Shown here: positions 1,542-18,445 of the stretch, piece after piece
Layout of the letters: the number at the start of each line of letters is the position of its first letter
How positions within the stretch are numbered: the first letter of the stretch is position 1
Assembly (NCBI GenBank): GCA_963843975.1
Contig: CAWJMG010000003.1
Coordinates: forward strand, 1,710,001-1,742,000
From: an uncultured Actinomycetes bacterium
Lineage (GTDB): Bacteria; Actinomycetota; Actinomycetes; S36-B12; CAIYMF01
Reading direction: 5' to 3'
Length of the DNA stretch: 32,000 bases
The notes under the pieces: generated by a model
What the model was told of the DNA's origin: nothing
The model's input: the letters and a program-made list of their open reading frames with translations, nothing else
Database searches by the model: none
Position numbers and translations under genes: made by a program

Positions 1542-2327
1542 ATGACCGAGGCCGCCGCGCTGCGCACCGTGCGTGCGACGCGCTACGTGCTCGCCCTGCG
1601 CGAGGGCGGCTCGCTGCCCGGCGTGGTCGAGGCCGACGACCTGGGCACCTACGTGCTGAAGTTCCGCGGCGCCGGCCAGGGCCTGCTCGCCCTCGTGGCC
1701 GAGGTGGTCTGCGGCGAGCTCGCCCGGCGGCTGGGTCTCCCCGTGCCCGAGCTGGTGCTGGCCGAGCTCGACGCCGGCCTCGCGAGCGCCGAGCCCGACG
1801 AGGAGGTGCAGGACCTCCTGCGGGCCAGCAACGGCCTCAACCTGGGCATGGACTTCCTGCCGGGCTCCCTCGGGATCGAGCGGCCGGACGGCCTCGACCC
1901 GGTGTTCGCCGCCCAGGTCGTCTGGTTCGACGCCCTCGTCCTCAACGTCGACCGCTCCTGGCGCAACCCGAACCTGCTCCGGTGGCACGGCTCGCCGTAC
2001 CTCATCGACCACGGCGCGGCGCTCTACTTCCACCACGACTGGGCCAGCGCCGCCAGCGTCCCCGGCCGCGCCTACCCGGGGCCGCGCGACCATGTGCTCA
2101 TGCCAGTGGCCGGTCCGATCCGCGAGGCCCACGACGCGCTGGCGCCCCTGGTCACGGCCGACCTGCTCGACGAGGTGCTCGCGCTGGTCCCGGACGGCTG
2201 GCTCGAGCACGACGGCGCCGCCGCCGCGGAGCGCCGTACGGCGTACCGCGACCTGCTGCTCGCCCGCGCCGCCGACCCCGAGCCGTGGCTCCCCGCGCTG
2301 GAGGTGGCCCGTGCCTCGTACGTATGA
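1542..2327 (+). CDS. HipA-like (HipA family) Ser/Thr kinase-fold protein, function unknown
   Basis: 261-aa ORF with high GC3. It has an N-terminal YVLKFRGAGQG stretch, a catalytic-loop-like LNVDRSWRNPNLL (D-x-x-x-x-N) and a following LIDHGAAL, resembling the HipA-type kinase core. Its 3' end overlaps the next gene. Confidence 0.65.
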   Translation: MTEAAALRTVRATRYVLALREGGSLPGVVEADDLGTYVLKFRGAGQGLLALVAEVVCGELARRLGLPVPELVLAELDAGLASAEPDEEVQDLLRASNGLNLGMDFLPGSLGIERPDGLDPVFAAQVVWFDALVLNVDRSWRNPNLLRWHGSPYLIDHGAALYFHHDWASAASVPGRAYPGPRDHVLMPVAGPIREAHDALAPLVTADLLDEVLALVPDGWLEHDGAAAAERRTAYRDLLLARAADPEPWLPALEVARASYV

Positions 2328-3047: not shown

Positions 3048-5120
3048 TCAGGGGGTGGGGCCGGTGCGGTCGCTGCCGTGCCGGTCGCGCTCGGCGAGGC
3101 TCGCGAGGTAGGCGTTGTAGTCCGCGTGGTCGTCGCGGCCGATCCCCGTGGTCGCCGCCCGCTCCTGCGCCCGGTCGGTGCGCCGCGCCTCGCGCTCGTC
3201 GCTCTTCACCCACTGCAGGAACATCGCGATCATCACGATCACGATCGGCACCTCGCCGAGCGCCCACCCGATGCTGCCGCCGAGGTGCTGGTCGGCCAGC
3301 AGGTCGGTGAGGTACGGCCGCTGCAGGCCGCCGAACCAGTCCTCGGCGATCACCTGCGTCGTCGCCATGATGGCGAGCGAGAAGAACGAGTGCAGCGGGA
3401 TCACCACGAGCAGGATCACGATGCGTACGAGGTACGGCGGACGGCTCGGGCCGGGGTCGACGCCGATGAGGCTCCAGAAGAACAGCGAGCCGGCGAGCAG
3501 GAAGTGCACGCCCATGAAGATGTGGCCCCAGTGGCTCGTCATGAGCGCCGGGAAGATGCCCGTCAGGTACAGCAGGTAGAAGCTCGAGACGAAGATCACC
3601 GAGGCCACGACGGGGTTCGAGATCACCTGCACGTAGCGCGAGTGGATGAACATCGTGAGCCACTCGCGCGGACCCACCTGGTCGCCGCCGCGCGGCAGCG
3701 TGCGCAGCGCGAGCGTCACGGGCGCGCCGAGCACCAGGAAGATCGGCGCGATCATGCTCAGCACCATGTGCTGCACCATGTGCACGCTGAACAGCACCGA
3801 GGCGTACGTCGCCAGCCCGGTGTTGGTCGCGAGCAGGATGAGCACCGTGCCGACGTACCAGAAGAAGCTGCGGCTGACCTGCCAGCGGTCGCCCTCGCGG
3901 CGCATCACGTGGGTGCCCGTCGCGTAGAGCGCGATCATGAAGCCGCAGACCGTGAGCCAGAAGCCGTCGAGCCGCGCCTCGCCCCAGAGCAGGCCGGGCA
4001 GCGTCGGTGCCGGCGGGAGGTCGAAGCCCAGCAGCAGCCGTGCGGGGCTGAGCGCGTCGACGGGCACCTCGCCCGACACCGGCGGCGGCGTCCGCGAGAG
4101 GGCCACGGCCACGCCGATGGTCGCCGCCATGACCAGCACCTCGACGGCCGCGAGCCGCACGAAGGCGCGTCGCGCGAGGTCGCCGGCGAGGGCCGGGACG
4201 ACGCGACGGCGGTGCCAGACGCCGAATGCCGCGAGCACGGCGATGAGCACGATCTTGAGCAGCACGAGCCGGCCGTACGACGTCGTCAGCAGGTCGGCCG
4301 GGCCGGCGATGCGGACGGTGGCGCTGGCGAGCCCCGACAGCGCCAGGGCGACGGCGGACCAGAGCGCGAGTCGGCTGAACCGCGGCACGGCCACGGGAAG
4401 CGGACGGCGGTCGCTGGTGCCGAGCAGCACGAGGGCAACGAGTCCGCCCACCCACAGCGCGGCGGCGATCACGTGCAGCATCAGGCTCGAGACGGCGAGC
4501 GTGTGCTGGTCCGACGTACCGGCGTGCGACACGAGAGTGGGCGGGAGCATCGCCCCGAGCGCGAGCAGGCAGAGCAGGCCGGCGCCGGTCGTCGTGCGGA
4601 TCGTGACCGAGCACGCGGCGACGAGGAGCACGAGCACGACCTGCACCAGCAGGGCGCGGCCGAGCTCGACGTCGGTGACGAAGCTCCAGAGCAGCGTCGG
4701 GTCGAGGACCTCGCCGACGGGCAGCGCGATGATGTCCGACAGCGACGTGACGACCTGCGCGAGCACCACCGCGGCCCAGGCGAGCGCCGACCAGCGCGCA
4801 GCGCGCGTCCAGGTGAGGCGCGCACCGCGCAGGAGGCCGTCGCGGGCGGGCACGAGCACCGCGCCGAGGAGCAGCAGACCCACCGTGAGGACCGAGGCGA
4901 GGTCGCCGAGCACCCGCAGCGTCGGCACCGCCCACTGGGTGCCGAGCCCGGGGTCGGGGAGGCCGTCCGGCGCGGTCGCCGGACGGCCGTCCCCGGCCCA
5001 CAGCAGCAGCGCCATCACCACGAGGGCGACGACGGGCGCGAGGCCCACGAGCAGGCGCGGCCGCCGGACGTCGACGACGTCCGTGGCCGGGCGCTGCTGC
5101 GCTGCTGCTGTCGTGGTCAT
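3048..5120 (-). CDS. fused copper resistance protein CopD / cytochrome c oxidase assembly factor CtaG (caa3-type) membrane protein
   Basis: Frame of the 718-aa ORF. I prefer the ATG at 5120 (MTTTAAAQQRP), which forms an ATGA overlap with the CopC stop. The N-terminal half is CopD-like (LMLHVIAAALWVGGLVALVLL). The C-terminal half carries the CtaG signature SVHMVQHMVLSMIAPIFLVLGAPVTLALR and HWGHIFMGVHFLLAGSLFFW. It is polytopic. Confidence 0.85.
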   Translation of the reverse strand: MTTTAAAQQRPATDVVDVRRPRLLVGLAPVVALVVMALLLWAGDGRPATAPDGLPDPGLGTQWAVPTLRVLGDLASVLTVGLLLLGAVLVPARDGLLRGARLTWTRAARWSALAWAAVVLAQVVTSLSDIIALPVGEVLDPTLLWSFVTDVELGRALLVQVVLVLLVAACSVTIRTTTGAGLLCLLALGAMLPPTLVSHAGTSDQHTLAVSSLMLHVIAAALWVGGLVALVLLGTSDRRPLPVAVPRFSRLALWSAVALALSGLASATVRIAGPADLLTTSYGRLVLLKIVLIAVLAAFGVWHRRRVVPALAGDLARRAFVRLAAVEVLVMAATIGVAVALSRTPPPVSGEVPVDALSPARLLLGFDLPPAPTLPGLLWGEARLDGFWLTVCGFMIALYATGTHVMRREGDRWQVSRSFFWYVGTVLILLATNTGLATYASVLFSVHMVQHMVLSMIAPIFLVLGAPVTLALRTLPRGGDQVGPREWLTMFIHSRYVQVISNPVVASVIFVSSFYLLYLTGIFPALMTSHWGHIFMGVHFLLAGSLFFWSLIGVDPGPSRPPYLVRIVILLVVIPLHSFFSLAIMATTQVIAEDWFGGLQRPYLTDLLADQHLGGSIGWALGEVPIVIVMIAMFLQWVKSDEREARRTDRAQERAATTGIGRDDHADYNAYLASLAERDRHGSDRTGPTP

Positions 5121-5803
5121 GACGAGGAGCCTGCCCTGCCCCGACGGCCCGCCGCCACCGCAGCCCCGAGCAGCGCGAGCACGGCGAGGCCCCCGAGCAC
5201 CCACGGCAACGCCGAGCCGCCGTCTGAGGACGACGTCGGGATCGTGCTCGGGCTCGGGTCGGGTGTCTCGGTCACGGTCGCCGTGATGGTCTCCCCGTTG
5301 GAGGCCGTCGGCGCGGCCGAAGTCGTCTCCGACGGCGCCGACGGCGACGGCGAGGCGGGATCGGACGGCGACTCGGACGGCGACGGGACCGTGCCGACGG
5401 TGAAGCTGAACGTGCCGGTCACGGGGTGCCCGTCGGCGGACACGACGCGGTACGAGACGCGCACCTCCCCGGCGACCGTGGGCGGCGTGATGGCCTGGGT
5501 GACGAGGGGGCCGTCGACGACGACGCGACCGTCGCCGAGCCTGACACCGGCGGCGTCGGTCACGACGACCGCGGTGCCGAGCTTCTGGGCCTCCTCGCCG
5601 AAGGTCAGGGAGACCTCGGTCGGCGCCTCGGCCACGGACGCGCCGTCCGCGGGAAGGGTGGAGAGCAGCTCGTCGTGCGCCGAGGCCGGCGCAGCGAGGG
5701 ACAGCGGGAGCACGACGAGGGCGAGAGCACCGACGGCGGCCCCGGCGAGCAGGGTGGAGCGGGTCCGGCGAGCGAGCGCGCGGACAGGACGGGTCGAGGA
5801 CAT
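5117..5803 (-). CDS. copC: CopC-domain copper-binding protein with Pro/Ser-rich linker and C-terminal membrane anchor
   Basis: ATG at 5803 (AGAAGG SD about 7 nt upstream). The signal peptide ends in APASA|HDELLSTLPADGASV, so the mature N-terminus starts with His as in CopC. The core has a CopC beta-sandwich pattern (VSLTFGEE..VRVSYRVVSADGHPVTGTFSFTV). A PS-rich linker follows, then the hydrophobic helix LPWVLGGLAVLALLGAAVAAGRR. Confidence 0.85.
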   Translation of the reverse strand: MSSTRPVRALARRTRSTLLAGAAVGALALVVLPLSLAAPASAHDELLSTLPADGASVAEAPTEVSLTFGEEAQKLGTAVVVTDAAGVRLGDGRVVVDGPLVTQAITPPTVAGEVRVSYRVVSADGHPVTGTFSFTVGTVPSPSESPSDPASPSPSAPSETTSAAPTASNGETITATVTETPDPSPSTIPTSSSDGGSALPWVLGGLAVLALLGAAVAAGRRGRAGSSS

Positions 5804-5858
5804 GCGGAACCTTCTGACTGGAGTCGGGCGGGCGGATGCGCGACGCCCGGCCGACCGA

Positions 5859-6449
5859 TCAGCAGGGCGCAGGGACCGCCGGGGGTCCACGGCGTGGACG
5901 ACGTCCCACCACGACGAGGCCGTCGGCACGCACCGCGCCCGACCGCGCAGCCACGACGATGCCTGCGACGGCAGGGACGACGACCCCGCGCGTGGTCAGC
6001 CGCACGGCGTGCAGCAGGGACCACAGCGACAGCGCACAGGCCTCGAGCGCGAGCAGCAGCACGGCGGCCACGAGCACGGCGACGCCGTGCGCCACGAGCA
6101 TCCGCAGGTCGAGCCCTCCCGCAGCGTGGGAACCGTGGGCGCCGGCAGCGGATCCGGCACCGGCGAGGCGCGGGTCGGAGGATCCGGTGGGCGACGACAG
6201 CCACAGCACGCCGTGCACGGCCGGCTGGGCGGCGGTCAGGGCGACGAGCAGGCGCGGCAGCGTCCATCGGTGCCCGGACGCCACGACGGCACCGACGACG
6301 ACGAGCGCCAGTGCCGCGACCACGGCGGGCGTGAGCGCGGAGCCCCCGGCCACGACGTGGCCGGTCGCCGCGACGGCTCCACCGACCGCCCCCACCACGA
6401 TTCCGCGCACGCGCCTGAGCGGTGCGGCGGTACGGGGAGCCGGGGTCAC
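5859..6449 (-). CDS. hypothetical integral membrane protein (about 4 helices, multiple His), first gene of the copper operon
   Basis: 196-aa ORF starting at GTG 6449 with consistently G/C third positions. Hydrophobic helices carry His residues (ATGHVVAG, ASGHRW, PAVHGVLW, GAHGSHAAG, LVAHGV, LLHAV). It lies 55 bp upstream of copC on the same strand. I do not recognise the family. Confidence 0.6.
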   Translation of the reverse strand: MTPAPRTAAPLRRVRGIVVGAVGGAVAATGHVVAGGSALTPAVVAALALVVVGAVVASGHRWTLPRLLVALTAAQPAVHGVLWLSSPTGSSDPRLAGAGSAAGAHGSHAAGGLDLRMLVAHGVAVLVAAVLLLALEACALSLWSLLHAVRLTTRGVVVPAVAGIVVAARSGAVRADGLVVVGRRPRRGPPAVPAPC

Positions 6450-6668
6450 CGCGTCATCGTAGGCGCCGCCACCGCGCTGGCAACGGGGCGCTCCCGTACC
6501 GCGCGGTGAGCCTGCCGGGGAGGCAGACAGCCCACCGACGTACCCGCGCCCCGCACGGAACCTCTCGGTTCGCTCTGCCGACTGGGATCACGGGCGAAGT
6601 CCGGTCAGAATGGATGAGCACGTGCCGTGAGCCACGGTCGACCCTGGTCGGCCCGTCGAAAGAGGGCC

Positions 6669-7031
6669 ATGAACGACATCACCGCGGAGACCGTCAGTCG
6701 CGCCCGGCTCGACTCGCTCGTCGACGAGATCGGCGACCAGGACATCGTGCGGCAGGCCGTGCAGAGCTTCCTCGACGAGCTCGTCGAGCGGCTGCAGGCC
6801 ATCCGCACGACCATCGCCGACGGCGACCCCGTTCTCGTGAAGAAGGCCGCTCACGCCCTCGGCTCTCCCGCGGCGATGCTCGGCGCCCTCGAGGTCAACC
6901 GCATCTGCCGCAGCATGCAGGACCAGTGCGAGGCCGGCCCCGCCGTCCTCGGCGGCCTCATGGGCGAGCTCGACGTCGCCTCGGCCCGCACCGTGGCCGA
7001 GCTGCGCGGCTACCTCGAGACGTCGGCCTGA
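6669..7031 (+). CDS. stand-alone histidine phosphotransfer (Hpt) domain protein
   Basis: ATG at 6669 with AAGAGGG SD just upstream. The 120-aa helical protein has the Hpt-like motif KKAAHALGSPAAMLGA. The candidate phospho-His is H62 (codon 6852-6854). The canonical form is H-x-L-K-G-S-A-x-x-L-G-A. Confidence 0.8.
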   Translation: MNDITAETVSRARLDSLVDEIGDQDIVRQAVQSFLDELVERLQAIRTTIADGDPVLVKKAAHALGSPAAMLGALEVNRICRSMQDQCEAGPAVLGGLMGELDVASARTVAELRGYLETSA

Positions 7032-7042
7032 CCGTTCGACCG

Positions 7043-7067
7043 CCGCACCCGCGATGAGCGGGCGCGG
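7043..7067. terminator. GC-rich hairpin between the convergent Hpt and kinase genes
   Basis: CCGCACCCGC gatga GCGGGCGCGG. The stem is 10 bp with one mismatch. It lies between the stops at 7031 (+) and 7068 (-). There is no U-tract. Confidence 0.4.
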
Positions 7068-8783
7068 CTACGACGCGCGCCCGCCGTCGAGCCAGCGCTG
7101 CACCATGTCCGACAGCGCGTCGATGCCGAACGGCTTGCTCAGGTAGTCGACCATCCCGGCGTCTCGGCACAGGTCGCGCTCGGTCTGCCCCACGTGCGCG
7201 GTCAGCGCGACGATCGGGACGTCGGGCGGTGTCGCGCCGCCTCCGTGGCGACGCCACTCGCGCGTCGTCTCGCGACCGTCCATGCCCGGCATCTGCACGT
7301 CCATCAGGACCAGGCCGTACGCCGTCGCCCGCAGCGACTCGATCGCCGCCTCACCGCTGTCGACCACGTCGGTCGCCACGCCGAGCTTGCCCAGCATGGC
7401 GGCGGCGAGCCGCCGGTTGACGTCGTTGTCGTCGACGAGCAGGACGCGCGTGCTGTGCTCGGAGTGGACGGTCGGGACGTGCACCGGCGCGTGCACGCGC
7501 AGCCGGGCGGAGGTGCCGCCCTCGGCGAGCCGCTGCACCAGCACCGTGCCCCCGAGCGCGGTCGCGAGCCGTGCGGTCTGCGCGAGGCCCGAGCCACCTG
7601 TCGGGCGGCCCGTCTGGTCCCACGTGTAGCCGATGCCGTCGTCGCGCACGTCGAACACGACGGCGTTGTCCTCGAGCGCCACCGAGATCCGCACGCCGCT
7701 GGCCCTCGCATGGCGGACGGCGTTGTCGACGAGCTCGTCGAGCGCCTGCTCGACGAGCGGGAGCGCGAGCTCGACGGGGTGGTCGCCCGCCGGGACCGTG
7801 GCGACGAGGACGGGCACAGCGGGGTCGGAGCGGCGCGCGGCGAGGTCAGTGACGAGCTCGCGCAGGACGACCGGCGAGCGGGGGCCGGCCACGCGGCGCT
7901 CGGTGCCGTCGGCGATGGCGACGAGGGCATCGGCGAGCCGGTCGAGCCGGTCCAGGTCGGCAGCACCCTCCGGTGCGACGCGCCCGCGGAGGTCGGCCGA
8001 GACGTCGTGCAGCTCGTGCACGACCCAGGCGGCGTACGCCGTGCGAGCGTCGTCGGTGCCGCGCCCGTGCCGCGTGAGCGCAGCGACGTCCTGGGTGCGC
8101 TGGGCGAGCAGCTCCTCGAGGCGACGGCGATCCTCCGCCTGCCGCTGCTGCACCCGCTCCCACTCGACCGCGCGGCCGAGCTGCGCGGCCAGCGACGGCG
8201 CGAGCTGCAGCAGCCTCTCGTCGGCCGTCATGGGCTGGTGGTGCACGAACTCGACGACGGCGACGACCTCGATGCCCGTGAGCACCGGGAAGGCCCAGGT
8301 CGCACCCGTCTGCAGACCGCCGCGCGTGTGACCGGGGGCCACCGACAGGTCCGGGATCCAGGCGGCGAGGTGCGAGGCGCCGACCTCGCCGGGGAGCCCG
8401 TTCATGGGGGCGAACCGCTCGTCGACCGTCCCGGCCATGACCGTGTCGAGGAAGTCGAGGTGCCCGGAGTCGGCGTCCCAGATGTCGGAGGTGACGAAGG
8501 CGCCGTCGGGATCGCGCAGCAGCACGTGCGACACGGCGAAGCCGCAGTGCTTCCGGACGACCTTCGCGGCCGCGCTCATGGCCGACAGGGAGTCGTCGGT
8601 CTCGTTCACGATCACGGCGATCGAGGCCAGCAGCTCGACCTCTCGCGCGCGCTCGAACGCGCGACGCAGCTGCGCCTCGGCAGTGCGCTCGGCCTCGAGG
8701 CGGGCGCTGCGCTCCTGCGCCGCGCGGTGCTCGAGGCGGGCGATCTCGTCCGGGCCGGCACCCTCGCCGGGCCCGGCCGTCAT
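7068..8783 (-). CDS. hybrid sensor kinase: coiled coil, GAF, atypical H-box, HATPase_c and canonical receiver
   Basis: 571-aa ORF. Its ATG at 8783 overlaps the upstream stop (ATGA). The region from about residue 50 to 200 is GAF-like. The H-box candidate is AAWVVHELHDV (H256, codon 8016-8018). The N-box is ELVDNAVRHA, G1 is DDGIG and G2 is GGSGLAQ. The receiver has VLLVDDN, LVLMDVQMPGMDG (D495), IVALTAH and SKPF. Confidence 0.85.
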   Translation of the reverse strand: MTAGPGEGAGPDEIARLEHRAAQERSARLEAERTAEAQLRRAFERAREVELLASIAVIVNETDDSLSAMSAAAKVVRKHCGFAVSHVLLRDPDGAFVTSDIWDADSGHLDFLDTVMAGTVDERFAPMNGLPGEVGASHLAAWIPDLSVAPGHTRGGLQTGATWAFPVLTGIEVVAVVEFVHHQPMTADERLLQLAPSLAAQLGRAVEWERVQQRQAEDRRRLEELLAQRTQDVAALTRHGRGTDDARTAYAAWVVHELHDVSADLRGRVAPEGAADLDRLDRLADALVAIADGTERRVAGPRSPVVLRELVTDLAARRSDPAVPVLVATVPAGDHPVELALPLVEQALDELVDNAVRHARASGVRISVALEDNAVVFDVRDDGIGYTWDQTGRPTGGSGLAQTARLATALGGTVLVQRLAEGGTSARLRVHAPVHVPTVHSEHSTRVLLVDDNDVNRRLAAAMLGKLGVATDVVDSGEAAIESLRATAYGLVLMDVQMPGMDGRETTREWRRHGGGATPPDVPIVALTAHVGQTERDLCRDAGMVDYLSKPFGIDALSDMVQRWLDGGRAS

Positions 8784-11194
8784 CGCACGGCTCCCGGCCC
8801 GAGGACGACGTCGAGGAGCCTGCGCAGCTCGCCGATGTCGACCGGCTTGCCGATGTGCCCGTCCATGCCGCTGTTGCGACAGCGCTCGAGCAGGTCGTCG
8901 TCGGCGCCACCGACCATCGCGTACACCGGCACCTTGGCTGCGAGGGGGTCGCGGAGGGCACGGATCTGCTCGGTGGTCGCCGGGCCGTCGACGCCCGGCA
9001 TGCGCGCGGCCACGAGGACGAGGCGCGTCCCGGGTGTCGCGAGGAGCTCCACGGCCTCGGTGGGCGACGCCACGCCGACGCCGGTCACGTCGATGCGCTG
9101 CAGGAGACGAAGCACGTGCGCCCGGCGCGCATCGCTGGACTCGATGACCACGACGGTCGGCGCCTCGACCGCCGACGGCTCGGACGCGACCACGTGCTCC
9201 GCGTCGCCACCAGCGACCTCGACGAGGCGCAGGACGAACCGGAAGGTCGAGCCGGATCCGAGCGTCGACTCGACGGCGATCTGGCCGCCCATGAGGCCGA
9301 CCAGCCGCTCGGCGATGGCGAGGCCGAGGCCAGTGCCCTCCTGGCTGCTGCGGGCCTGGACGAACGGGTCGAAGATCGTCGCCACCTTCTCGGGCGCGAT
9401 GCCGGGGCCGGTGTCGTGCACCTCGACCTCGACCACGGCCTCCGGGCCGCGGCGCGACATCAGGCGCAGCGAGAGGGACACCGAGCCGCTCGCGGTGAAC
9501 TTCACGGCGTTGCCCACCAGGTTGACGAGCACCTGGCGGAAGCGCACCGGGTCGCCGAGGACGCGCGCCGGGATGTCGGGGTCGGACGAGAGCCCGAGCT
9601 CGATCCCCTTGCCGCGGGCCTGCGGGCCGAGCAGGTCCACGACCGCGCGCGCGACGTCGGCCGGCGAGTAGGGCTCGGAGACGAGGTCGATCCGCCCCGC
9701 CTCGACCTTCTGCAGGTCGAGGATGTCGTTGATGATCGTGACCAGGTTCGACGCCGAGGTGTCGATGACACCGACGAGCTCGGCCTGCTCGCCGTCGAGG
9801 TCGGTCGTGCGCAGCAGGTCGACGGTCGCCATCACGCCGTGCATCGGCGTACGGATCTCGTGGCTCATCGAGGCGAGGAACTGCGACTTCGCGTCCGAGG
9901 CCGCGATCGCCTCGTCGCGAGCCCGGGCCAGGGCCTCCTGGTAGAGGACGCGGTCGGTTGCGTCGCGGAACATCCAGAGGGCGCCGAGGTCCTGACCCTC
10001 GGAGACGATCGGCTGGAAGTCGAACTCCAGCACGCGCGAGCCCGACAGTGTCAGCGACTGGTTGACGGCCGGCCAGCGGCGCGTCGTGAGGTCCTCCGTA
10101 CGGCGCAGGAACGCGGCCGGGTCGTCCTCTGGGCGCACGACGTGCGCGATCGCGGCGCTTATCGGCAGGCCGGTGAGCTCATCAGGGTCGACGGCCGAGC
10201 GGAACATCTGCGTGAGCGTCGCATTGGCCATCACGACCCGTCGCTGCCGGTCCTCCACGAGGACGCCGGACTGCATGTGGTCGAGCAGCGTGGTGAGGCG
10301 CGACATCGTGTCGCGCAGCTCGAGCTCCGCGGTCTTGGCCGTCGTCACGTCCAGCATGAAGCCGAACCGGCGGCGCTTGCCGTCCTCGTCCTCCACGACG
10401 CTGTCGACGGCGCGGGTCCAGATCACGCGGCCGTCGGCCGTGAGGAGGCGCAACTCCTCGTCGAAGGGCGAGTCGTCGACCTCCGACAGGTGGTTGGCCG
10501 TCCACGCGCGGTCGCGATCCTCCGGGTGGACGACGACACGGAAGAAGAACGCGGGCTCGCTCAGCCATCGGCGTGCCGGGTAGCCGAGCCAGTCGGCGAC
10601 CTGCGGGCTGATGAACTCGGCGATCGACTCGTCGCCCAGGGTGTCGATGTACATGACGAGCGGTTGCAGCTCGACGATGCGCCGGTACTGCGCCTCGGCG
10701 CGCGTCAGCATGCGGTTGGCGTCGCGCAGCTCTGTGGCCGAGCGCTGGAGCTCGGCATTCAGCGTGCGGAGGTCGTCGAGGCTGCGCTCCTGGCCGCGGC
10801 GCAGGAACAGCAGGTCCGGCGTCTGGTCGACCGGCGAGAAGTCCGCGGCCGACAGGCCGAGCCGCTCGAGCTCCTGCGACGAGGAGACGATCGGGTTGCC
10901 GATGAGCAGCAGCCCTGCGGGATCGGCGACGTCCACGGCCTGGAACCGCATGCGCGGACCCTCCGGCAGGACGCGCATGAGCAGCATCGAGTCGCGGTGC
11001 GCGCGCATGTGCCCGATCGTGCTCACGCCCAGAGGGCGCACGATCTCGAGGGACTCGAGCAGCGGGCGCCCGACGAGCGTCAGGCCGAGGCGGTCCCAGG
11101 ACGGGCCCTGGCGCAGCACGACGAGGTCCTCGTCGCACAGCACGCCGAAGGGGGCCGCGCGGTCGAGGTCGTCGTCCCGCAGCGAGATGCTCAC
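8780..11194 (-). CDS. HNOBA-PAS-PAS histidine kinase with C-terminal degenerate receiver domain
   Basis: 804-aa ORF. Its GTG at 11194 overlaps the H-NOX stop (GTGA). The N-terminus APFGVLCDEDLVVLRQGPSWDRLGL..LLESLEIVRP resembles the HNOBA domain of soluble guanylate cyclases. A coiled coil and two PAS-like segments follow. HisKA is SMSHEIRTPMHGV. HATPase_c has LVNLVGNAVKFT, HDTGPGI and GTGLGLAI. The receiver-like end has Ala in place of the acceptor Asp (LVLVAARMPGVDG). Confidence 0.9.
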   Translation of the reverse strand: MSISLRDDDLDRAAPFGVLCDEDLVVLRQGPSWDRLGLTLVGRPLLESLEIVRPLGVSTIGHMRAHRDSMLLMRVLPEGPRMRFQAVDVADPAGLLLIGNPIVSSSQELERLGLSAADFSPVDQTPDLLFLRRGQERSLDDLRTLNAELQRSATELRDANRMLTRAEAQYRRIVELQPLVMYIDTLGDESIAEFISPQVADWLGYPARRWLSEPAFFFRVVVHPEDRDRAWTANHLSEVDDSPFDEELRLLTADGRVIWTRAVDSVVEDEDGKRRRFGFMLDVTTAKTAELELRDTMSRLTTLLDHMQSGVLVEDRQRRVVMANATLTQMFRSAVDPDELTGLPISAAIAHVVRPEDDPAAFLRRTEDLTTRRWPAVNQSLTLSGSRVLEFDFQPIVSEGQDLGALWMFRDATDRVLYQEALARARDEAIAASDAKSQFLASMSHEIRTPMHGVMATVDLLRTTDLDGEQAELVGVIDTSASNLVTIINDILDLQKVEAGRIDLVSEPYSPADVARAVVDLLGPQARGKGIELGLSSDPDIPARVLGDPVRFRQVLVNLVGNAVKFTASGSVSLSLRLMSRRGPEAVVEVEVHDTGPGIAPEKVATIFDPFVQARSSQEGTGLGLAIAERLVGLMGGQIAVESTLGSGSTFRFVLRLVEVAGGDAEHVVASEPSAVEAPTVVVIESSDARRAHVLRLLQRIDVTGVGVASPTEAVELLATPGTRLVLVAARMPGVDGPATTEQIRALRDPLAAKVPVYAMVGGADDDLLERCRNSGMDGHIGKPVDIGELRRLLDVVLGPGAVR

Positions 11195-11748
11195 GACGTA
11201 CCGGCGCCCCTCAGCCGGACGAAGAACACCTCGTGGTCGGTGCCGTCCGAGGCCACGCCGTCGTGCGTGACGTCCGCAGGCGTGCCGTACAGGTCGCCCA
11301 GCCCTTCGAGCAGGCCGACGACGAACGGGACGAGGCCCACCCGATCGGAGCGGTAGTGGACCTCGAGGGTGCCGTCGCCGGTCTCGAGCACGTCGAACGA
11401 CGGCGGGCGCAGCTCGGGGTAGAGCGACTGCAGCCGCGCGTGCATCTCGTCGAGGTTGCGCAGCACCGAGGGAACGTCGGTGCCCGTGGCGCCGAGGATG
11501 TCGCTGTAGCTCTCGGGGCCGACACGGGTGGACCAGAAGTGCCCGAAGCCGCGCAGCAGCTCGTCGGCCGGCGCGCCGAGCTCGTCGCTGGCGGCGGCGA
11601 CGAGCGCGTAGGTGACGGCGTCGTCGTAGTAGTGCAGCGCCGCGAACGTCTGACTCGTCTCCGCCTTGGTCGCGATCGCGCTCCAGGCCGCGGGTCCGGC
11701 GTTCTCCACGACGTGGCGACGCATCGCCTCGTTGATGAGTCCGTACAC
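11191..11748 (-). CDS. hnoX: H-NOX (haem nitric oxide/oxygen binding, HNOB) sensor protein
   Basis: I prefer the GTG at 11748 (AGAGGGG SD 7 nt upstream). It gives the canonical N-terminus MYGLINEAM. The proximal haem His lies in NLDEMHARL (H103, codon 11440-11442). The haem-propionate motif Y-x-S-x-R appears as HYRSDRVGL (Y132/S134/R136). PPSFDV is also present. At 185 aa the length is typical of the family. Confidence 0.9.
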   Translation of the reverse strand: MYGLINEAMRRHVVENAGPAAWSAIATKAETSQTFAALHYYDDAVTYALVAAASDELGAPADELLRGFGHFWSTRVGPESYSDILGATGTDVPSVLRNLDEMHARLQSLYPELRPPSFDVLETGDGTLEVHYRSDRVGLVPFVVGLLEGLGDLYGTPADVTHDGVASDGTDHEVFFVRLRGAGTS

Positions 11749-11815
11749 CGTCACGCCCCTCTGCGGGTCGAGGTCTGGGCGAGGTCCGAGGCCCGGGCCG
11801 GGGCCCCGTCGAGGG

Positions 11816-12502
11816 TCAGACCGGCTCGAACCGGTAGCCCACCCCACGGAGCGTACGGATGTGGCGCGGGGATGCGGCCGACTCGCCGAGCTTCTTGCGC
11901 AGCTTGCCGACGTGCACCTCGATCACGTGGTCGTCGCCGAACCACTCGCCCCAGATCTGCTCGAGCAGCTGCTCGCGCGTGAAGATGCGGCGCGGGTTGC
12001 CCGACAGCAGGTCGAGGATGTCGAACTCGATCTTGGTGAGCTCGACCTCCTCGCCGTCGACCTTCACCTCGCGGGCCAGCGGGTCGACGATCAGGTGCCC
12101 GAAGTCGCGGACCTCCTGCTGCGCGCGCTGACGCGGGCGGCGGCGCATCGCGCGGATGCGGGCGGCGAGCTCGCGGGGGGAGAACGGCTTGGTGACGTAG
12201 TCGTCGGCGCCGACGGTGAGGCCCACGATCTTGTCGACCTCGTCGTCGCGCGAGGTGACCATGACGACGTAGGCGTCGCTGAAGACGCGCAGCTGGCGGC
12301 AGACCTCGACGCCGTCGGAGTCCGGCAGGGAGAGGTCGAGGATGACGAGCTCGGGCTTGCCGGCGCGGGCGAACTCCAGCCCCTTCTTGCCGAGGGGAGT
12401 CGCGACGACGTCGTAGCCCTCCTTCTCCAGGAGGCCGCGCACGAGCAGGGTGATCTCCGGCGAGTCCTCGATGATGAGGGCCTGACCTCGCTGAGTGGCC
12501 AC
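11816..12502 (-). CDS. OmpR/PhoB-family response regulator (receiver plus winged-helix DNA binding)
   Basis: GTG at 12502 (GAAAGGA SD 8 nt upstream). The receiver has IIEDS, LVILDLSLPDSDG, MVTSR and TKPF. The C-terminal wHTH has LTKIEFDILDLL..REQLLEQIWG..IEVHVGKLRKKL..IRTLRGVGYRF. Confidence 0.9.
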   Translation of the reverse strand: MATQRGQALIIEDSPEITLLVRGLLEKEGYDVVATPLGKKGLEFARAGKPELVILDLSLPDSDGVEVCRQLRVFSDAYVVMVTSRDDEVDKIVGLTVGADDYVTKPFSPRELAARIRAMRRRPRQRAQQEVRDFGHLIVDPLAREVKVDGEEVELTKIEFDILDLLSGNPRRIFTREQLLEQIWGEWFGDDHVIEVHVGKLRKKLGESAASPRHIRTLRGVGYRFEPV

Positions 12503-12537
12503 GATGCTTGTCCTTTCGGCTTGTCCGGTGAGCGCCA

Positions 12538-12550
12538 TCACAGACTGTGA
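12538..12550. promoter_or_regulatory. perfect 13-bp palindrome TCACAGACTGTGA upstream of the response-regulator/H-NOX operon (candidate operator)
   Basis: It lies 36-48 nt upstream of the regulator start and is relatively AT-rich for this DNA. It sits next to a CTCGGAG-N7-CTCCGAG hairpin (12556-12576). Three ACTCC-containing repeats are nearby at 12547-12556, 12577-12585 and 12628-12635. Confidence 0.3.
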
Positions 12551-12725
12551 CACTCCTCGGAGTTGCGCGCTCCGAGAGTTACTCCGTCCGTGTTCCGCCG
12601 GACGTCCCTATCCGATCAACTGTCGTGGTCACTCCATCACATGCGCCTCTCGGGATGCTCAACGAGCGATCAGCGGAGGAGAGCGACCGGAGAGGTGCCC
12701 GCGCCATCGACGCAACCTGGGTCGG

Positions 12726-13910
12726 TCAGCCCGTCGAGTCGGCGACTTCCGCGACGACGTCGTACTTCGGTGCGTAGGTCTCGAGGAACGACATGACGAT
12801 CGCGGCCACGGGAACGGCGAGGACCGCACCGGCGGCGCCGAACAACGAGGCGCCGAACAGGACCGCGCCGAAGGAGACAGCTGGATGGAGGTCGACCGCC
12901 TTGGCGCTGATCTTCGGCTCGATGGTGAGGTTCTCGACCTGCTGGTAGAGCAGAGCCCAGGCCAGCGCGATGAGGCCGATCTTCGGGTCGGGGGACAGCA
13001 GGCCGATGAGGACGGGCAGCGCGATCGCGATGTAGGTGCCGATCGTGGGCACGAACTGCGCGACGACACCGGTCCAGATGCCGAGCGGGAGCCAGTACGG
13101 CATACCGATGATCCAGAGCACCAGGGCGGTGGTGCTGCCGTTGATGAACGCGAGGACGAGACGGGCCGCGACGTACCCGCCGGCCTTCTCGATCGACACG
13201 TCCCAGAGCTCGCTGTTGACCCGCTGCGCTGACCCCGGAAGGAACTTCGAGACCCAGCGTCGGAGACGGGGTGCGTCGGCCGACAGGTAGAAGGTGAAGA
13301 GGAGCAGCGTGAACACGTTGAAGACCGAGCCGACGAAGCTGAAGATCGCGCCGAAGATCCCGCCGGCGGCACCGGCCGCCCACGAGGCGATGGCGCCGGG
13401 CGTGAGCCCGATGCTGTCGAGGATCTTGTCGACGCTCAGGTCGGTCGCGAACTGCCTGTTGACCCAGTCGATGACGTTGGAGACGACGTCGGGCAGCGAC
13501 TTGATGAGCTGCAGGAGCTGGTCGACGAGCAGGTTGCCGAAGATCGCGAAGAAGATGACCGTCGCGACGAGCGCCGCGACCATGATGAGTCCGGCGGCGA
13601 GCCCTCGCCTCATCCCGCGGCGGGCGAAGAACGAGACCGCAGGCTCCATCACGACCGACAGGGCGAACGCCATGATGATCGTGAACAGCACGCCGCCCGC
13701 GTCCTCGAGCACGAACATCCCGAAGGCGATGACCCCGGCGATCACGAGGAAGAGCGCCGCGACGCGGCGCAGGTTGGCCATGTCGAAGATGACGGTGGGC
13801 TCGCGCTCGTGCTTGCGCCCGCCGTCGGCCGCTCTCACCTTCGCCTCCGGCTCGGCCACAGCTCCGTCGGCCGTTCCGCCCCCGTGGGCGCTGTCGTCCT
13901 CGGTCGCCAT
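12726..13910 (-). CDS. AI-2E family transporter (PerM/UPF0118-like permease)
   Basis: 394-aa ORF with ATG at 13910 (GAGGGGA SD 6 nt upstream). It is polytopic. The family-typical C-terminal segments are YVAARLVLAFINGSTTALVLWIIGMPYWLPLGIWTGVVAQFVPTIGTYI and LLYQQVENLTIEPKI. Confidence 0.85.
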   Translation of the reverse strand: MATEDDSAHGGGTADGAVAEPEAKVRAADGGRKHEREPTVIFDMANLRRVAALFLVIAGVIAFGMFVLEDAGGVLFTIIMAFALSVVMEPAVSFFARRGMRRGLAAGLIMVAALVATVIFFAIFGNLLVDQLLQLIKSLPDVVSNVIDWVNRQFATDLSVDKILDSIGLTPGAIASWAAGAAGGIFGAIFSFVGSVFNVFTLLLFTFYLSADAPRLRRWVSKFLPGSAQRVNSELWDVSIEKAGGYVAARLVLAFINGSTTALVLWIIGMPYWLPLGIWTGVVAQFVPTIGTYIAIALPVLIGLLSPDPKIGLIALAWALLYQQVENLTIEPKISAKAVDLHPAVSFGAVLFGASLFGAAGAVLAVPVAAIVMSFLETYAPKYDVVAEVADSTG

Positions 13911-17078: not shown

Positions 17079-17393
17079 ATGACTGACGTGAACCTGGACG
17101 ACGCCCTCGCGATGGTCGTGGAGTTCCGCGCCGCCCCGGGGCGCCGTGACGAGCTCCGCGCCGAGCTGCTCGCGCTCGTCGAGCCCACCCGCGCCGAGGA
17201 CGGCTGCCTGCTCTACGACCTGCACGAGTCGCGCGACGACGAGGACGTGTTCGCGTTCTACGAGGTCTGGCGCGACAAGGCCGCGCACACCGCCCACGAC
17301 GCGACGCCGCACGTGGCCCGCATCCGCTCGGTCATCCCCGAGCTGGCCGTCGGCGGCAACCGCAAGCTCAACCTCCGCCGCATCGAGCCCTAG
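17079..17393 (+). CDS. antibiotic-biosynthesis-monooxygenase (ABM) domain protein / putative quinol monooxygenase
   Basis: ATG at 17079 in the frame of ORF 16944..17393. The 104-aa product has MVVEFRAAPGRRDELRAELLALVEPTRAEDGCLLYDLHESRDDEDVFAFYEVWRDKAAHTAH, typical of the YgiN/ABM ferredoxin-like fold. Confidence 0.8.
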   Translation: MTDVNLDDALAMVVEFRAAPGRRDELRAELLALVEPTRAEDGCLLYDLHESRDDEDVFAFYEVWRDKAAHTAHDATPHVARIRSVIPELAVGGNRKLNLRRIEP

Positions 17394-18400
17394 CCGGTCA
17401 GGTCCTGGCCCTCGGCGGCGTCCCTGCGGCGGGCGGCCATGCCGGACAGGACCTCCCAGACGACGCGGTGGCCGTTGTTGACCGTCACGTCGGCGTGGTC
17501 GTATGCCGGCGCCACCTCGACCACGTCCATGCCGATCACCTGAGTCTCCTGCGCGATGCGGCGTACGACGCGCAGCAGGTCGACGGGAGCCATGCCGCCC
17601 GGCTCGGGAGTGCCCGTGCCGGGCGCGAAGCCCGGGTCGAGCACGTCGATGTCGCACGAGATGTAGATGAGGTCGGGGCCGTCGAGGGCCTCGGCGATCA
17701 CGCGGTCGATCACCGCGTGGATGCCGTCCTCCCAGATCTCCTGCATGAAGTGGGTGCGCATCCCCTGCTCGCGCATCCAGGCGACGACGTCGGCGGGTGG
17801 CCAGTAGCCGCGCAGACCCACCTGCACGAAGTTGCGGCCGAGCACCGCACCGCTCTCGATCAGCCGGCGCATCGGCGTGCCGTGGCTCGCGAGGTTGCCG
17901 TCGATCTCCTCGGCCGTGTCGGCGTGCGCGTCGAAGTGGATGACGCCGACGCGCCCGTGGCCCACATGGTCGGCCACCGCCGCGACCGACGGCCACGTGA
18001 TCGCGTGGTCGCCGCCGAGCACCACGGGCACGATGCCGCGGCTGGCGACCGCGTGCACGCGGTCGTAGATCGCCTGCCGCGAGCGCTCCCACTGGCCGTG
18101 GCTGCAGATCGCGTCGCCGTAGTCGACGACGTCGAGATGGTCGAAGATCTCGAGCTGCAGGTCGAGGTGGTAGGTCCCGGGCGTGTGCGCGCCGCGCAGG
18201 GCCCGCGGGCCGAAGCGGGCGCCCGGGCGGTACGTCGTGCCGCCGTCCCAGGGGGCGCCGACCACGGCGACGTCGGGCTTCCACTCGTCGAGCTGCTCGG
18301 GCTCGGTCAGCAGCGGGCGGTGGCCGAAGGTGGCGGGGCCCATGTAGTCGTCCGCACCGAGCTGTTCGCGCATCCCGGGCGGGAGTCGTTCGTCGGTCAC
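17390..18400 (-). CDS. agmatinase-family ureohydrolase (agmatinase / guanidino-acid hydrolase)
   Basis: 336-aa ORF with the arginase-fold Mn ligand motifs GGDHAITWP, HFDAHADT and SCDIDVLDPGFAPGTGTPEPGG. Substrate specificity cannot be read from the sequence. Confidence 0.9.
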   Translation of the reverse strand: MTDERLPPGMREQLGADDYMGPATFGHRPLLTEPEQLDEWKPDVAVVGAPWDGGTTYRPGARFGPRALRGAHTPGTYHLDLQLEIFDHLDVVDYGDAICSHGQWERSRQAIYDRVHAVASRGIVPVVLGGDHAITWPSVAAVADHVGHGRVGVIHFDAHADTAEEIDGNLASHGTPMRRLIESGAVLGRNFVQVGLRGYWPPADVVAWMREQGMRTHFMQEIWEDGIHAVIDRVIAEALDGPDLIYISCDIDVLDPGFAPGTGTPEPGGMAPVDLLRVVRRIAQETQVIGMDVVEVAPAYDHADVTVNNGHRVVWEVLSGMAARRRDAAEGQDLTG

Positions 18401-18445
18401 GGCGTCACCCTAGGGCCGGCCGCCGGCATCCGTATCGTTTCACCC

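Follow-up and report, generated by a model that had tools for sequence, protein, structure and literature searches.

The genes for a stand-alone haem-NO binding (H-NOX) protein, two kinases, an Hpt phosphotransfer protein and an OmpR-type regulator form a real five-gene cluster that is shared by a group of actinobacteria. In the window, the whole 32-kb stretch of DNA analysed here, this cluster is a reduced derivative of a two-H-NOX cluster present in nine related species; the second H-NOX of these relatives and a derived double loss in the window's clade are newly described. The locus probably represents a vertically inherited actinobacterial NO-sensing operon, in which H-NOX would signal through kinase 1, kinase 2 and Hpt to the OmpR-type regulator. 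From sequence we infer that H-NOX binds haem and NO, and likewise the sign of its effect and the path of the phosphate. No new principle is involved, since every component, like the logic of the relay, is already known.

Organisation and distribution of the cluster

All five open reading frames proposed in an earlier note on this DNA are present and intact at the coordinates given there (Table 1). The genes for the OmpR-type regulator, H-NOX, kinase 1 and kinase 2 follow one another in this order on the minus strand, and the Hpt gene lies on the plus strand, convergent with kinase 2 and separated from its stop codon by 36 nt. The junctions had also been read correctly: 67 nt separate the regulator stop at 11816 from the H-NOX GTG start at 11748, which is preceded by a GAGGGG Shine-Dalgarno-like motif, the H-NOX stop and kinase-1 start overlap by 4 nt (GTGA), and the kinase-1 stop and kinase-2 start share an ATGA. 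These overlaps point to translational coupling of the H-NOX, kinase-1 and kinase-2 genes.

Table 1. Features of the H-NOX cluster in the window
Feature	Coordinates	Strand	Description
Stand-alone Hpt phosphotransfer protein	6669..7031	+	120 aa; Pfam Hpt 38.9 bits
GC-rich hairpin	7042..7068	.	Between the convergent kinase-2 and Hpt genes
Kinase 2	7068..8783	-	571 aa; long helix 11-61; GAF about 62-188, then helix to H-box; atypical H-box VVHELHD (His256); HATPase_c 344-431; canonical receiver 447-561
Kinase 1	8780..11194	-	804 aa; Pfam HNOBA, PAS_3, PAS_4, HisKA, HATPase_c, Response_reg; H-NOXA about aa 1-125; signalling-helix coiled coil 126-175; PAS 187-284; PAS 299-417; HisKA with His445; HATPase_c 547-657; pseudo-receiver 681-793
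Stand-alone H-NOX protein	11191..11748	-	185 aa; Nostoc/sGC-beta type
OmpR/PhoB-family response regulator	11816..12502	-	228 aa; acid pocket E12-D13; phospho-acceptor D56
Conserved element TGTCACAGTCTGTGA (GTCAC-N5-GTnA)	12538..12552	-	36-50 nt upstream of the regulator start

Fourteen actinobacterial species, the cultured Longivirga aurantiaca among them, have the cluster at one and the same place in the chromosome, flanked by a gene for acetyl-CoA hydrolase and, at the opposite end, by CopC/CopD-CtaG. Such synteny of five genes is far beyond chance. L. aurantiaca (Sporichthyales) is the nearest cultured relative, with an H-NOX that is 87% identical, which bears out the actinobacterial origin suspected from the sequence. 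The Hpt gene is convergent at every locus where it has been found, and the hairpin between it and kinase 2 (MFE -23.3 kcal/mol, z = -3.45; none of 200 shuffles folds as well) is likely a bidirectional terminator, on which a consensus terminator scan is silent because it has no T-run. At the other end of the cluster, the TGTCACAGTCTGTGA element may serve as an operator or promoter; its TGTCA and GT columns are conserved upstream of 13-14 orthologous loci, and the window holds one match against 0.14 expected by chance.

In nine of the relatives (L005, L006, L008-L012, L014 and L015), a second H-NOX gene, of Shewanella type, stands between the kinase genes and directly precedes kinase 2. No Shewanella-type H-NOX gene was found anywhere in the window, where only the Nostoc-type H-NOX is matched, and kinase 2 is without the H-NOX gene just upstream that marks a Shewanella/Vibrio-type HnoX-HnoK pair; the second gene could sit elsewhere in the source genome, outside the window. 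The acceptor Asp of kinase 1 is kept in six of the nine two-H-NOX relatives, namely those with a readable kinase-1 receiver. In the window's clade both the second H-NOX gene and this Asp, replaced by Ala or Ser, are missing, and a rooted tree identifies the loss as derived. The system had been described as unusually complete; it is instead a trimmed form of the cluster in these nine species.

The kinases, Hpt and regulator, and the proposed route between them

A Pfam profile search was run on all five proteins of the cluster. Kinase 1 scores 35.3 bits with HNOBA (cut-off 23.4) and 42 bits with Response_reg and, with its PAS_3, PAS_4, HisKA and HATPase_c matches, is rightly called an HNOBA-PAS-PAS kinase. 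A family profile of its N-terminus matches the H-NOXA structure of a Nostoc punctiforme histidine kinase (2P04, E 1.5e-31) as well as sGC beta1 (E 2.5e-30; residues 207-380) and alpha1; this region is a member of the H-NOXA family. A survey of HNOB-HNOBA neighbours, recommended in the earlier note, places an H-NOXA-type gene directly downstream of a Nostoc/sGC-type H-NOX in 71 of 80 related loci from many phyla. At the C-terminus, Ala729 replaces the acceptor Asp and E685-S686 the usual Asp-Asp, so that kinase 1 has no intact receiver for a multistep phosphorelay; comparison across orthologues confirms that Ala729 stands at the phospho-acceptor position and hence that the label pseudo-receiver is correct. 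The pseudo-receiver is the fastest-evolving domain in the clade (67-73% identity, against 73-100% in other domains), and the signalling helix is 100% identical.

Kinase 2 combines a GAF domain, a HATPase_c domain with intact N and G boxes, matched in Pfam, and a receiver (Response_reg 89.5 bits) that retains D451-D452, Asp495 and K550 and is the sole intact hybrid-type receiver of the window cluster. Its own GAF_2 score of 19.8 bits falls below the cut-off of 28.6, but the proposed GAF fold is borne out by an AF2 model of residues 1-240 (pLDDT 90.8), whose Foldseek matches include GAF domains, and by Pfam GAF matches in orthologues. The Pfam search gave no HisKA match in kinase 2, and its autokinase activity is uncertain because the DHp is atypical and lacks this match. 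Only 67 sequence clusters make up the kinase-2 family, each a relative of full or nearly full length with 42-100% identity; the few members with a named source are actinobacterial MAGs, and in four related species the ATP-binding domain is degenerate. Within the Hpt protein, the sole histidine, His62, is the predicted phosphorylatable residue and lies in AHALGSPAAMLGA, which is invariant among 12 orthologues. The kinase-2 receiver and the Hpt His motif are kept in the twelve loci compared, the frameshifted L005 assembly excepted.

The regulator shows both halves of an OmpR/PhoB-family protein (Response_reg 91.8 bits; Trans_reg_C 93.6 bits), and both a conserved VATQ N-terminus and the divergence of the upstream DNA speak for its GTG start at 12502. 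Orthologues share 97-99% identity with it in L002-L004 and 78-87% in L005-L015. An assignment as MtrA equivalog was rejected, the score of 209.8 bits lying below the cut-off of 300.

In the relay that we favour, H-NOX would regulate kinase 1 through the H-NOXA domain and signalling helix, kinase 1 would autophosphorylate on His445, and the phosphoryl group would most likely pass in trans to Asp495 of kinase 2, because the receiver of kinase 1 itself has lost its acceptor Asp. From there it is predicted to move to His62 of Hpt and on to Asp56 of the regulator, which in its phosphorylated form would change transcription, probably also that of its own gene. Kinase 2, whose ATP-binding domain is complete and whose GAF domain is conserved, probably feeds a second signal into the same Hpt. 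The route suggested in the earlier note, from H-NOX through kinase 1 and/or kinase 2 to Hpt and the regulator, agrees with the residue pattern and the comparative data.

Alternatively, the two kinases may form parallel branches, which we regard as rather unlikely. The H-NOX-controlled kinase 1 would then phosphorylate the OmpR-type regulator directly, its pseudo-receiver being only a structural or regulatory module, and kinase 2 and Hpt would make up a separate, GAF-driven branch, a phosphate sink or a phosphatase route onto the same regulator. Such an arrangement fits the canonical HisKA/HATPase core of kinase 1 and the position of the regulator gene just upstream in the same orientation; loss of the acceptor Asp is expected if a hybrid kinase became orthodox, and in this clade kinase 2 retains both its H-box His256 and an undamaged ATP-binding domain. 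Against it stands the outgroup L016, in which kinase 1 has an intact receiver and a fused Hpt; the kinases of the related L017 and L018 are about as long, and an OmpR-type regulator (49-53% identical) is found at each of the three loci. The ancestral kinase-1 route was therefore probably His-Asp-His-Asp, and the kinase-1 DHp was probably tuned to a hybrid-type receiver, not to the OmpR regulator. Between live-receiver and dead-receiver lineages, moreover, the DHp sequence has changed little.

Returning to the serial relay, we tentatively hypothesize that the window's clade is a natural rewiring in which two parallel sensor-kinase modules collapsed into one serial chain, a possibility to which we give somewhat less than even weight. 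In the ancestor, one Hpt may have been fed by two hybrid kinases, one with H-NOXA and a Nostoc-type H-NOX as partner, the other with GAF and a Shewanella-type H-NOX; now, kinase 1 may depend on the kinase-2 receiver, with kinase 2 left without an H-NOX of its own. If this is true, the sister species offer a ready-made series on the re-routing of phosphorelay specificity, with full, intermediate and alternatively degenerate forms, the last with a dead kinase-2 ATP-binding domain and a live kinase-1 receiver. The relatives differ naturally in the presence of a second H-NOX and in whether the kinase-1 receiver and the kinase-2 ATPase are live or dead, and these variants bear on the rewiring of multi-kinase relays.

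The H-NOX protein and its predicted ligand

The 185-aa protein matches Pfam HNOB (PF07700) over its full length (138.8 bits, cut-off 25.5, profile positions 1-163 of 163) in the HMM search that the earlier note proposed. The Nostoc/sGC-beta pattern recognised there is also found in sequence matches to Nostoc Alr2278 (E 2e-45) and sGC beta1 (E 1e-25), with 41% identity to the Nostoc H-NOX, and in an AF2 model (pLDDT 90.0; TM 0.91 to 2O09/4IAE) for which the best Foldseek matches are Nostoc H-NOX structures (TM 0.90-0.92, rmsd 2.0 Å), followed by sGC beta1. The hallmark residues H103 and Y132-x-S134-x-R136, together with P116, align with Nostoc H105, Y134, S136, R138 and P118 and are invariant among 21 homologues. 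In the distal pocket, Phe142 aligns with Nostoc Met144, a position that we take to be equivalent to Tyr140 in the O2-binding Tt H-NOX and Ile145 in sGC. Because Phe142 occupies this position, the distal H-bond donor is absent, and the protein, with no distal-pocket Tyr, has the pocket expected of the NO-selective, O2-excluding subgroup. Nostoc and sGC H-NOX proteins exclude O2.

The protein would thus be a haem-containing H-NOX that senses NO; CO is a possible ligand and O2 an unlikely one. In Shewanella and Vibrio the NO-bound form of H-NOX is an inhibitor of kinases, yet it activates sGC. It is improbable that the protein responds instead to O2, to CO, to the redox state of haem or to the supply of haem. 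Some H-NOX proteins do bind O2 (Tt H-NOX) or use haem oxidation or Cys/Zn redox (PMC8738867), and a search for NO-metabolism genes within the window found none; against this stand the grouping with the Nostoc and sGC proteins, Phe142 in place of Tyr, and the absence of cysteine from the whole sequence, which makes a thiol/zinc redox switch impossible. Least probable by far is that the cluster is decaying in the window's lineage and is no longer one working pathway: the same clade has lost the second H-NOX gene and kinase-1 receiver function, and no other domain evolves as fast as the pseudo-receiver, but the five reading frames are intact with a GC3 of 0.94-0.96 in each, all other catalytic residues and the gene overlaps are preserved, and the near-identity of the regulator and the identity of the signalling helix within the clade indicate purifying selection.

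Relation to known H-NOX systems

To our knowledge, H-NOX signalling has been worked out almost wholly in Proteobacteria and for the Shewanella/Vibrio subtype, and we know of no established physiological output of the Nostoc H-NOX/H-NOXA kinase pair. A Nostoc/sGC-type H-NOX with an H-NOXA kinase is structurally well known and is the closest bacterial relative of the sensor half of the animal NO receptor; the window cluster connects such a pair with one particular Hpt and one DNA-binding regulator. Since the cluster is present in the cultured L. aurantiaca CGMCC 4.7317, the system is open to experimental study. The view that H-NOX signalling is uncharacterised in Actinobacteria holds in that a 2022 review lists none as characterised, but homologues had already been noted bioinformatically (PMC8738867); literature searches for experimental work on actinobacterial H-NOX after that review found none.

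The Nostoc sp. PCC 7120 Alr2278 and Nostoc punctiforme pair (2O09, 2P04) shares the H-NOX subtype and the His, P and YxSxR residues, its partner kinase starts with H-NOXA like kinase 1, and the H-NOX gene is adjacent in both. In contrast, the window host is actinobacterial, its kinase 1 ends in a pseudo-receiver, and the cluster also encodes a second hybrid kinase, Hpt and an OmpR-type regulator. Animal sGC beta1 has the same order of H-NOX, H-NOXA and signalling helix, whereas in the window H-NOX is a separate polypeptide and the output is a PAS-PAS histidine kinase, not a cyclase. Vibrio HqsK-LuxU-LuxO, Silicibacter TrichCH4B and Vibrio fischeri HnoX-HahK share the relay logic, in which a stand-alone H-NOX controls a kinase and phosphate passes via a receiver and Hpt to a response regulator (PMC6759604, PMC4436077, PMC12369376). 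They differ in using the Shewanella/Vibrio H-NOX subtype, kinases without H-NOXA, and quorum sensing or c-di-GMP enzymes as outputs in place of an OmpR-type regulator. Their Shewanella-type H-NOX is the part that the window lacks and the sister species have. The second H-NOX of the sister species is closest to that of Shewanella oneidensis (E 2e-28), with three Cys aligned between the two, and precedes kinase 2 as hnoX precedes hnoK. Kinase 2 has both a GAF domain and a receiver, neither of which is known from Shewanella HnoK.

The predicted NO-sensing gene cluster and its proteins

The earlier note had described a complete phosphorelay set: an OmpR-type regulator, an H-NOX protein, an H-NOXA-PAS-PAS kinase (kinase 1), a GAF hybrid kinase (kinase 2) and a convergently encoded Hpt protein. 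All five genes are present at its coordinates in the ORF table (listed below), and its observation was confirmed as a whole. GC3 is 0.94-0.96 in each of the five genes, in a window of ~72% GC. The regulator frame ends in ...FEPV-TGA at 11816 and is separated from the H-NOX gene by a 67-nt spacer with a GAGGGG ribosome-binding motif before the GTG at 11748, from which the H-NOX ORF begins (M)YGLINEA. Both proposed overlaps, GTGA at the H-NOX stop and kinase-1 start and ATGA at the kinase-1 stop and kinase-2 start, were found in the sequence. The convergent kinase 2 and Hpt genes lie 36 nt apart, with a GC-rich hairpin (-23.3 kcal/mol, z = -3.45) as spacer. An Rfam search of 6000-13000 gave no match, and sigma-70 and terminator consensus scans returned nothing of relevance to the operon. 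As GTCAC-N5-GTnA, the conserved element upstream of the regulator occurs once in the whole window; with a 10-nt period that agrees with a direct repeat of the OmpR family, it may serve in autoregulation, or else as a promoter element.

Features of the cluster, its surroundings and related loci (each in the coordinates of its own stretch)
Feature	Stretch	Coordinates	Strand	Remarks
OmpR-type regulator	window	11816-12502	-	
H-NOX	window	11191-11748	-	
Kinase 1	window	8780-11194	-	804 aa
Kinase 2	window	7068-8783	-	571 aa
Kinase-2 GAF region	window	8220-8600	-	
Hpt	window	6669-7031	+	
Conserved element TGTCAC-N5-GTnA	window	12538-12552	-	36-50 nt upstream of regulator start; recognisable upstream of orthologous loci
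HipA_2-like kinase gene	window	1542-2327	+	
Copper-handling genes	window	3048-6449	-	CopD/Caa3_CtaG fusion, CopC, conserved 196-aa membrane protein without Pfam match
AI-2E family transporter	window	12726-13910	-	between regulator and acetyl-CoA hydrolase genes
ABM monooxygenase, arginase-family gene, class-III aminotransferase	window	17079-21370		grouped
GGDEF-EAL protein	window	21959-24715	-	918 aa; 9.5 kb from cluster
Second H-NOX	L011	10977-11513		MKGIIFN N-terminus
Second H-NOX	L010	10968-11504		MKGIIFN N-terminus
Kinase 2, degenerate	L011	11486-13231		
Kinase 1 and kinase 2, split frames	L005	8548-13368		long-contig MAG
Kinase 1 with fused C-terminal Hpt	L016	8551-11400		~950 aa; Solirubrobacteraceae MAG

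The H-NOX protein (185 aa) matches the entire Pfam HNOB profile (138.8 bits); an NCBIfam search of it returned no matching model. Its closest solved structures are Nostoc Alr2278 (E 2e-45) and sGC beta1 (E 1e-25), and Shewanella H-NOX is matched at 1e-7 only. The AF2 model (pLDDT 90) superposes on Nostoc H-NOX with TM 0.91 and rmsd 2.0 A. The hallmark residues named in the earlier note, His103, Tyr132, Ser134 and Arg136, do match the haem ligand and the propionate-binding residues of the Nostoc protein in the alignment. With Pro116, they are unchanged across 21 homologues, of which the most distant has 43% identity. Phe142 aligns with Nostoc Met144, the position of Tyr140 in the O2-binding Tt H-NOX, and on this basis the protein is predicted to be a sensor with NO and CO, but not O2, as ligands. 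It contains zero cysteines, which rules out a zinc/thiol redox mechanism like that of Vibrio-type H-NOX (PMC8738867).

Kinase 1 has Pfam matches to HNOBA, PAS_3, PAS_4, HisKA, HATPase_c and Response_reg, arranged as H-NOXA, signalling helix, two PAS domains, HisKA (His445), HATPase_c and receiver. A single-sequence PDB search with its N-terminus gave a weak match to sGC (E 0.006), in which residues 12-156 align with Manduca beta1 213-374. The H-NOXA of a Nostoc punctiforme histidine kinase (2P04, E 1.5e-31) was reached only by a profile of the first 175 residues and 30 homologues (31 sequences), which also matches sGC beta1 and alpha1. The founding paper on HNOBA is reportedly that of Iyer et al. 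2003, and the Nostoc H-NOXA structure is said to be that of Ma et al. 2008. The receiver was rightly called a pseudo-receiver, with Ala729 in place of the acceptor Asp and Glu-Ser as the acidic pair. Within the window's clade (the window and the loci L002-L004) it is the least conserved kinase-1 domain, with 67-73% identity, against 100% for the signalling helix.

Kinase 2 matches HATPase_c and Response_reg in Pfam, with GAF_2 below threshold, and a HisKA HMM search gave no match. It has a conserved His256 in VVHELHD and intact N (DNA), G1 (DDGIG) and G2 boxes, and its receiver (DD, Asp495, Lys) is fully canonical. The GAF assignment is upheld by an AF2 model of residues 1-240 (pLDDT 90.8), which in structure is most similar to GAF domains (target-normalised TM up to 0.78), and by Pfam GAF matches on many orthologues. 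An NCBIfam search of the N-terminal/GAF region found no matching model, and phmmer of the GAF region against PDB sequences found nothing. Eleven GAF residues (R77, H79, C80, H86, D100, W102, D103, D105, H138, W142 and W163) are invariant in 32 orthologues, which suggests a specific ligand or cofactor pocket. Invariance of R77, H79, C80, H86, D100, D103, D105 and H138 had raised the idea that the domain binds haem, as in DosS, or iron, as in NorR. This is unsupported, as Foldseek matched generic GAFs only (fRMsr, PtsP, Nlh, phytochromes); no characterised relative was identified. The kinase-2 family is small, with 67 sequence clusters among 5.8 billion, all full- or near-full-length and 42-100% identical to the window protein; the few source-named clusters are all actinobacterial MAGs (Nanopelagicales, Frankiales).

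The Hpt protein (Pfam Hpt, 38.9 bits) has a single histidine, His62, in AHALGSPAAMLGA, a motif invariant in 12 orthologues. The regulator consists of Response_reg and Trans_reg_C by Pfam, has Asp56, and is unusually conserved (97-99% identity within the window's clade).

Vertical inheritance and derived losses among related loci

In a scan with a single genome for each species, the H-NOX protein had 173 relatives, the top ones actinobacterial, in line with the origin read from the sequence. The best match is from the cultured Longivirga aurantiaca CGMCC 4.7317 (87% identity; Sporichthyales, Actinomycetes per NCBI), and ~17 MAGs with actinobacterial labels (Nanopelagicales, Actinomycetes, Solirubrobacteraceae, Acidimicrobiales) rank next. 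Below these are Planctomycetota, Verrucomicrobiota, Myxococcota and others, with identities of 38-47%. An H-NOXA-type gene directly follows the H-NOX gene in 71/80 loci, indicating that this pairing is a general rule for the H-NOX subtype. The related loci L002-L015 keep the order regulator, H-NOX, kinase 1, kinase 2 and convergent Hpt, and also the flanks, with acetyl-CoA hydrolase upstream and CopC/CopD-CtaG downstream. This conservation argues that the cluster has long been part of the chromosome and has been passed on vertically. A recent horizontal transfer can be rejected, because the GC of the cluster matches that of its flanks and the genes on either side keep their synteny throughout the clade. 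The copper-handling genes directly downstream of the Hpt gene are syntenic in most related loci.

In nine related species (L005, L006, L008, L009, L010, L011, L012, L014 and L015), a second H-NOX gene (~178 aa), separate from the first, lies between the two kinase genes. Its products match HNOB with 115-121 bits, are nearest to Shewanella oneidensis H-NOX (E 2e-28), and carry the proximal His, YRSxR and three conserved Cys aligned with those of the Shewanella protein. Neither the window nor L. aurantiaca (L002), L003 or L004 has this gene, and these four are also the only loci with a replaced acceptor Asp in kinase 1; every other locus with a readable kinase-1 receiver, the outgroup L016-L018 included, is canonical. 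In a tree built by neighbour joining from kinase 1, H-NOX and regulator (1201 columns), with L016-L018 as the root, the window's clade (bootstrap 100/100) is nested inside the two-H-NOX group, whose members are monophyletic in 0/100 replicates. Hence, on this tree, both the absence of the second H-NOX and the replacement of the acceptor Asp are read as derived losses. The kinase-2 GAF domain was considered as a substitute for the lost H-NOX and rejected, since its residues are equally invariant where the second H-NOX is retained.

The outgroup kinases 1 of L017 and L018 (941 and 950 aa) have canonical receivers, as does that of L016, where neither a kinase-2 orthologue nor a second H-NOX was detected within the fetched stretch. 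All three outgroup loci hold an OmpR-type regulator (49-53% identical). Kinase 2 has a degenerate ATP-binding domain in four species (L011, L012, L014 and L015), with neither the N-box Asn nor the G1 box left and no match to Pfam HATPase_c. These loci keep the kinase-2 H-box His and receiver and an intact kinase-1 receiver. Their kinases 2 may be pseudokinases that serve solely as phosphotransfer or phosphatase modules. The split kinase-1 and kinase-2 frames of L005 are probably frameshifts from assembly indels and not pseudogenes.

Proposed phosphate route and relation to known H-NOX systems

The reading of the cluster as an H-NOX relay, put forward in the earlier note, is supported in silico, and in its general form we consider it likely. 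Ancestrally, the phosphate probably passed from the kinase-1 His to the Asp of its own receiver, then to the Hpt His and the regulator Asp. As the kinase-1 receiver is dead in the window's clade, the receiver step would have to be supplied in trans, and transfer from kinase 1 to kinase 2 is favoured because kinase 2 has the only intact hybrid-type receiver of the cluster. We hypothesize that NO-bound H-NOX acts on kinase 1, that phosphate would move from its His445 to Asp495 of kinase 2, His62 of Hpt and Asp56 of the regulator, and that kinase 2 would contribute, via its own His256, an input sensed by its GAF domain. This serial order is put forward tentatively, at somewhat less than an even chance. 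In the main rival, kinase 1 would phosphorylate the regulator directly, and kinase 2 and Hpt would make up a branch that runs in parallel.

Vibrio, Silicibacter and V. fischeri are known to have relays of H-NOX, hybrid kinase and Hpt (PMC6759604, PMC4436077 and PMC12369376), and an H-NOX/H-NOXA-kinase pair is known from Nostoc (2P04; as cited in PMC2828450). The cluster is a variant within H-NOX two-component signalling, and not a new kind of system. A 2022 review had already listed actinobacterial H-NOX homologues from a sequence-similarity network, none of them studied by then (PMC8738867); literature searches gave no experimental work after it. The cluster is informative in that it ties an sGC-like H-NOX/H-NOXA pair to a relay with two kinases, that its reduced and rewired forms make up a natural series, and that one of its hosts is in culture.

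No NO-metabolism genes were found in the window. The long N-terminal region of the GGDEF-EAL protein has no Pfam match; c-di-GMP enzymes are common H-NOX outputs. Among the loci fetched, the AI-2E transporter gene is present only in the window and L002-L004, a clade-specific difference. Arginase and ABM homologues also lie near the cluster in L003 and L010.
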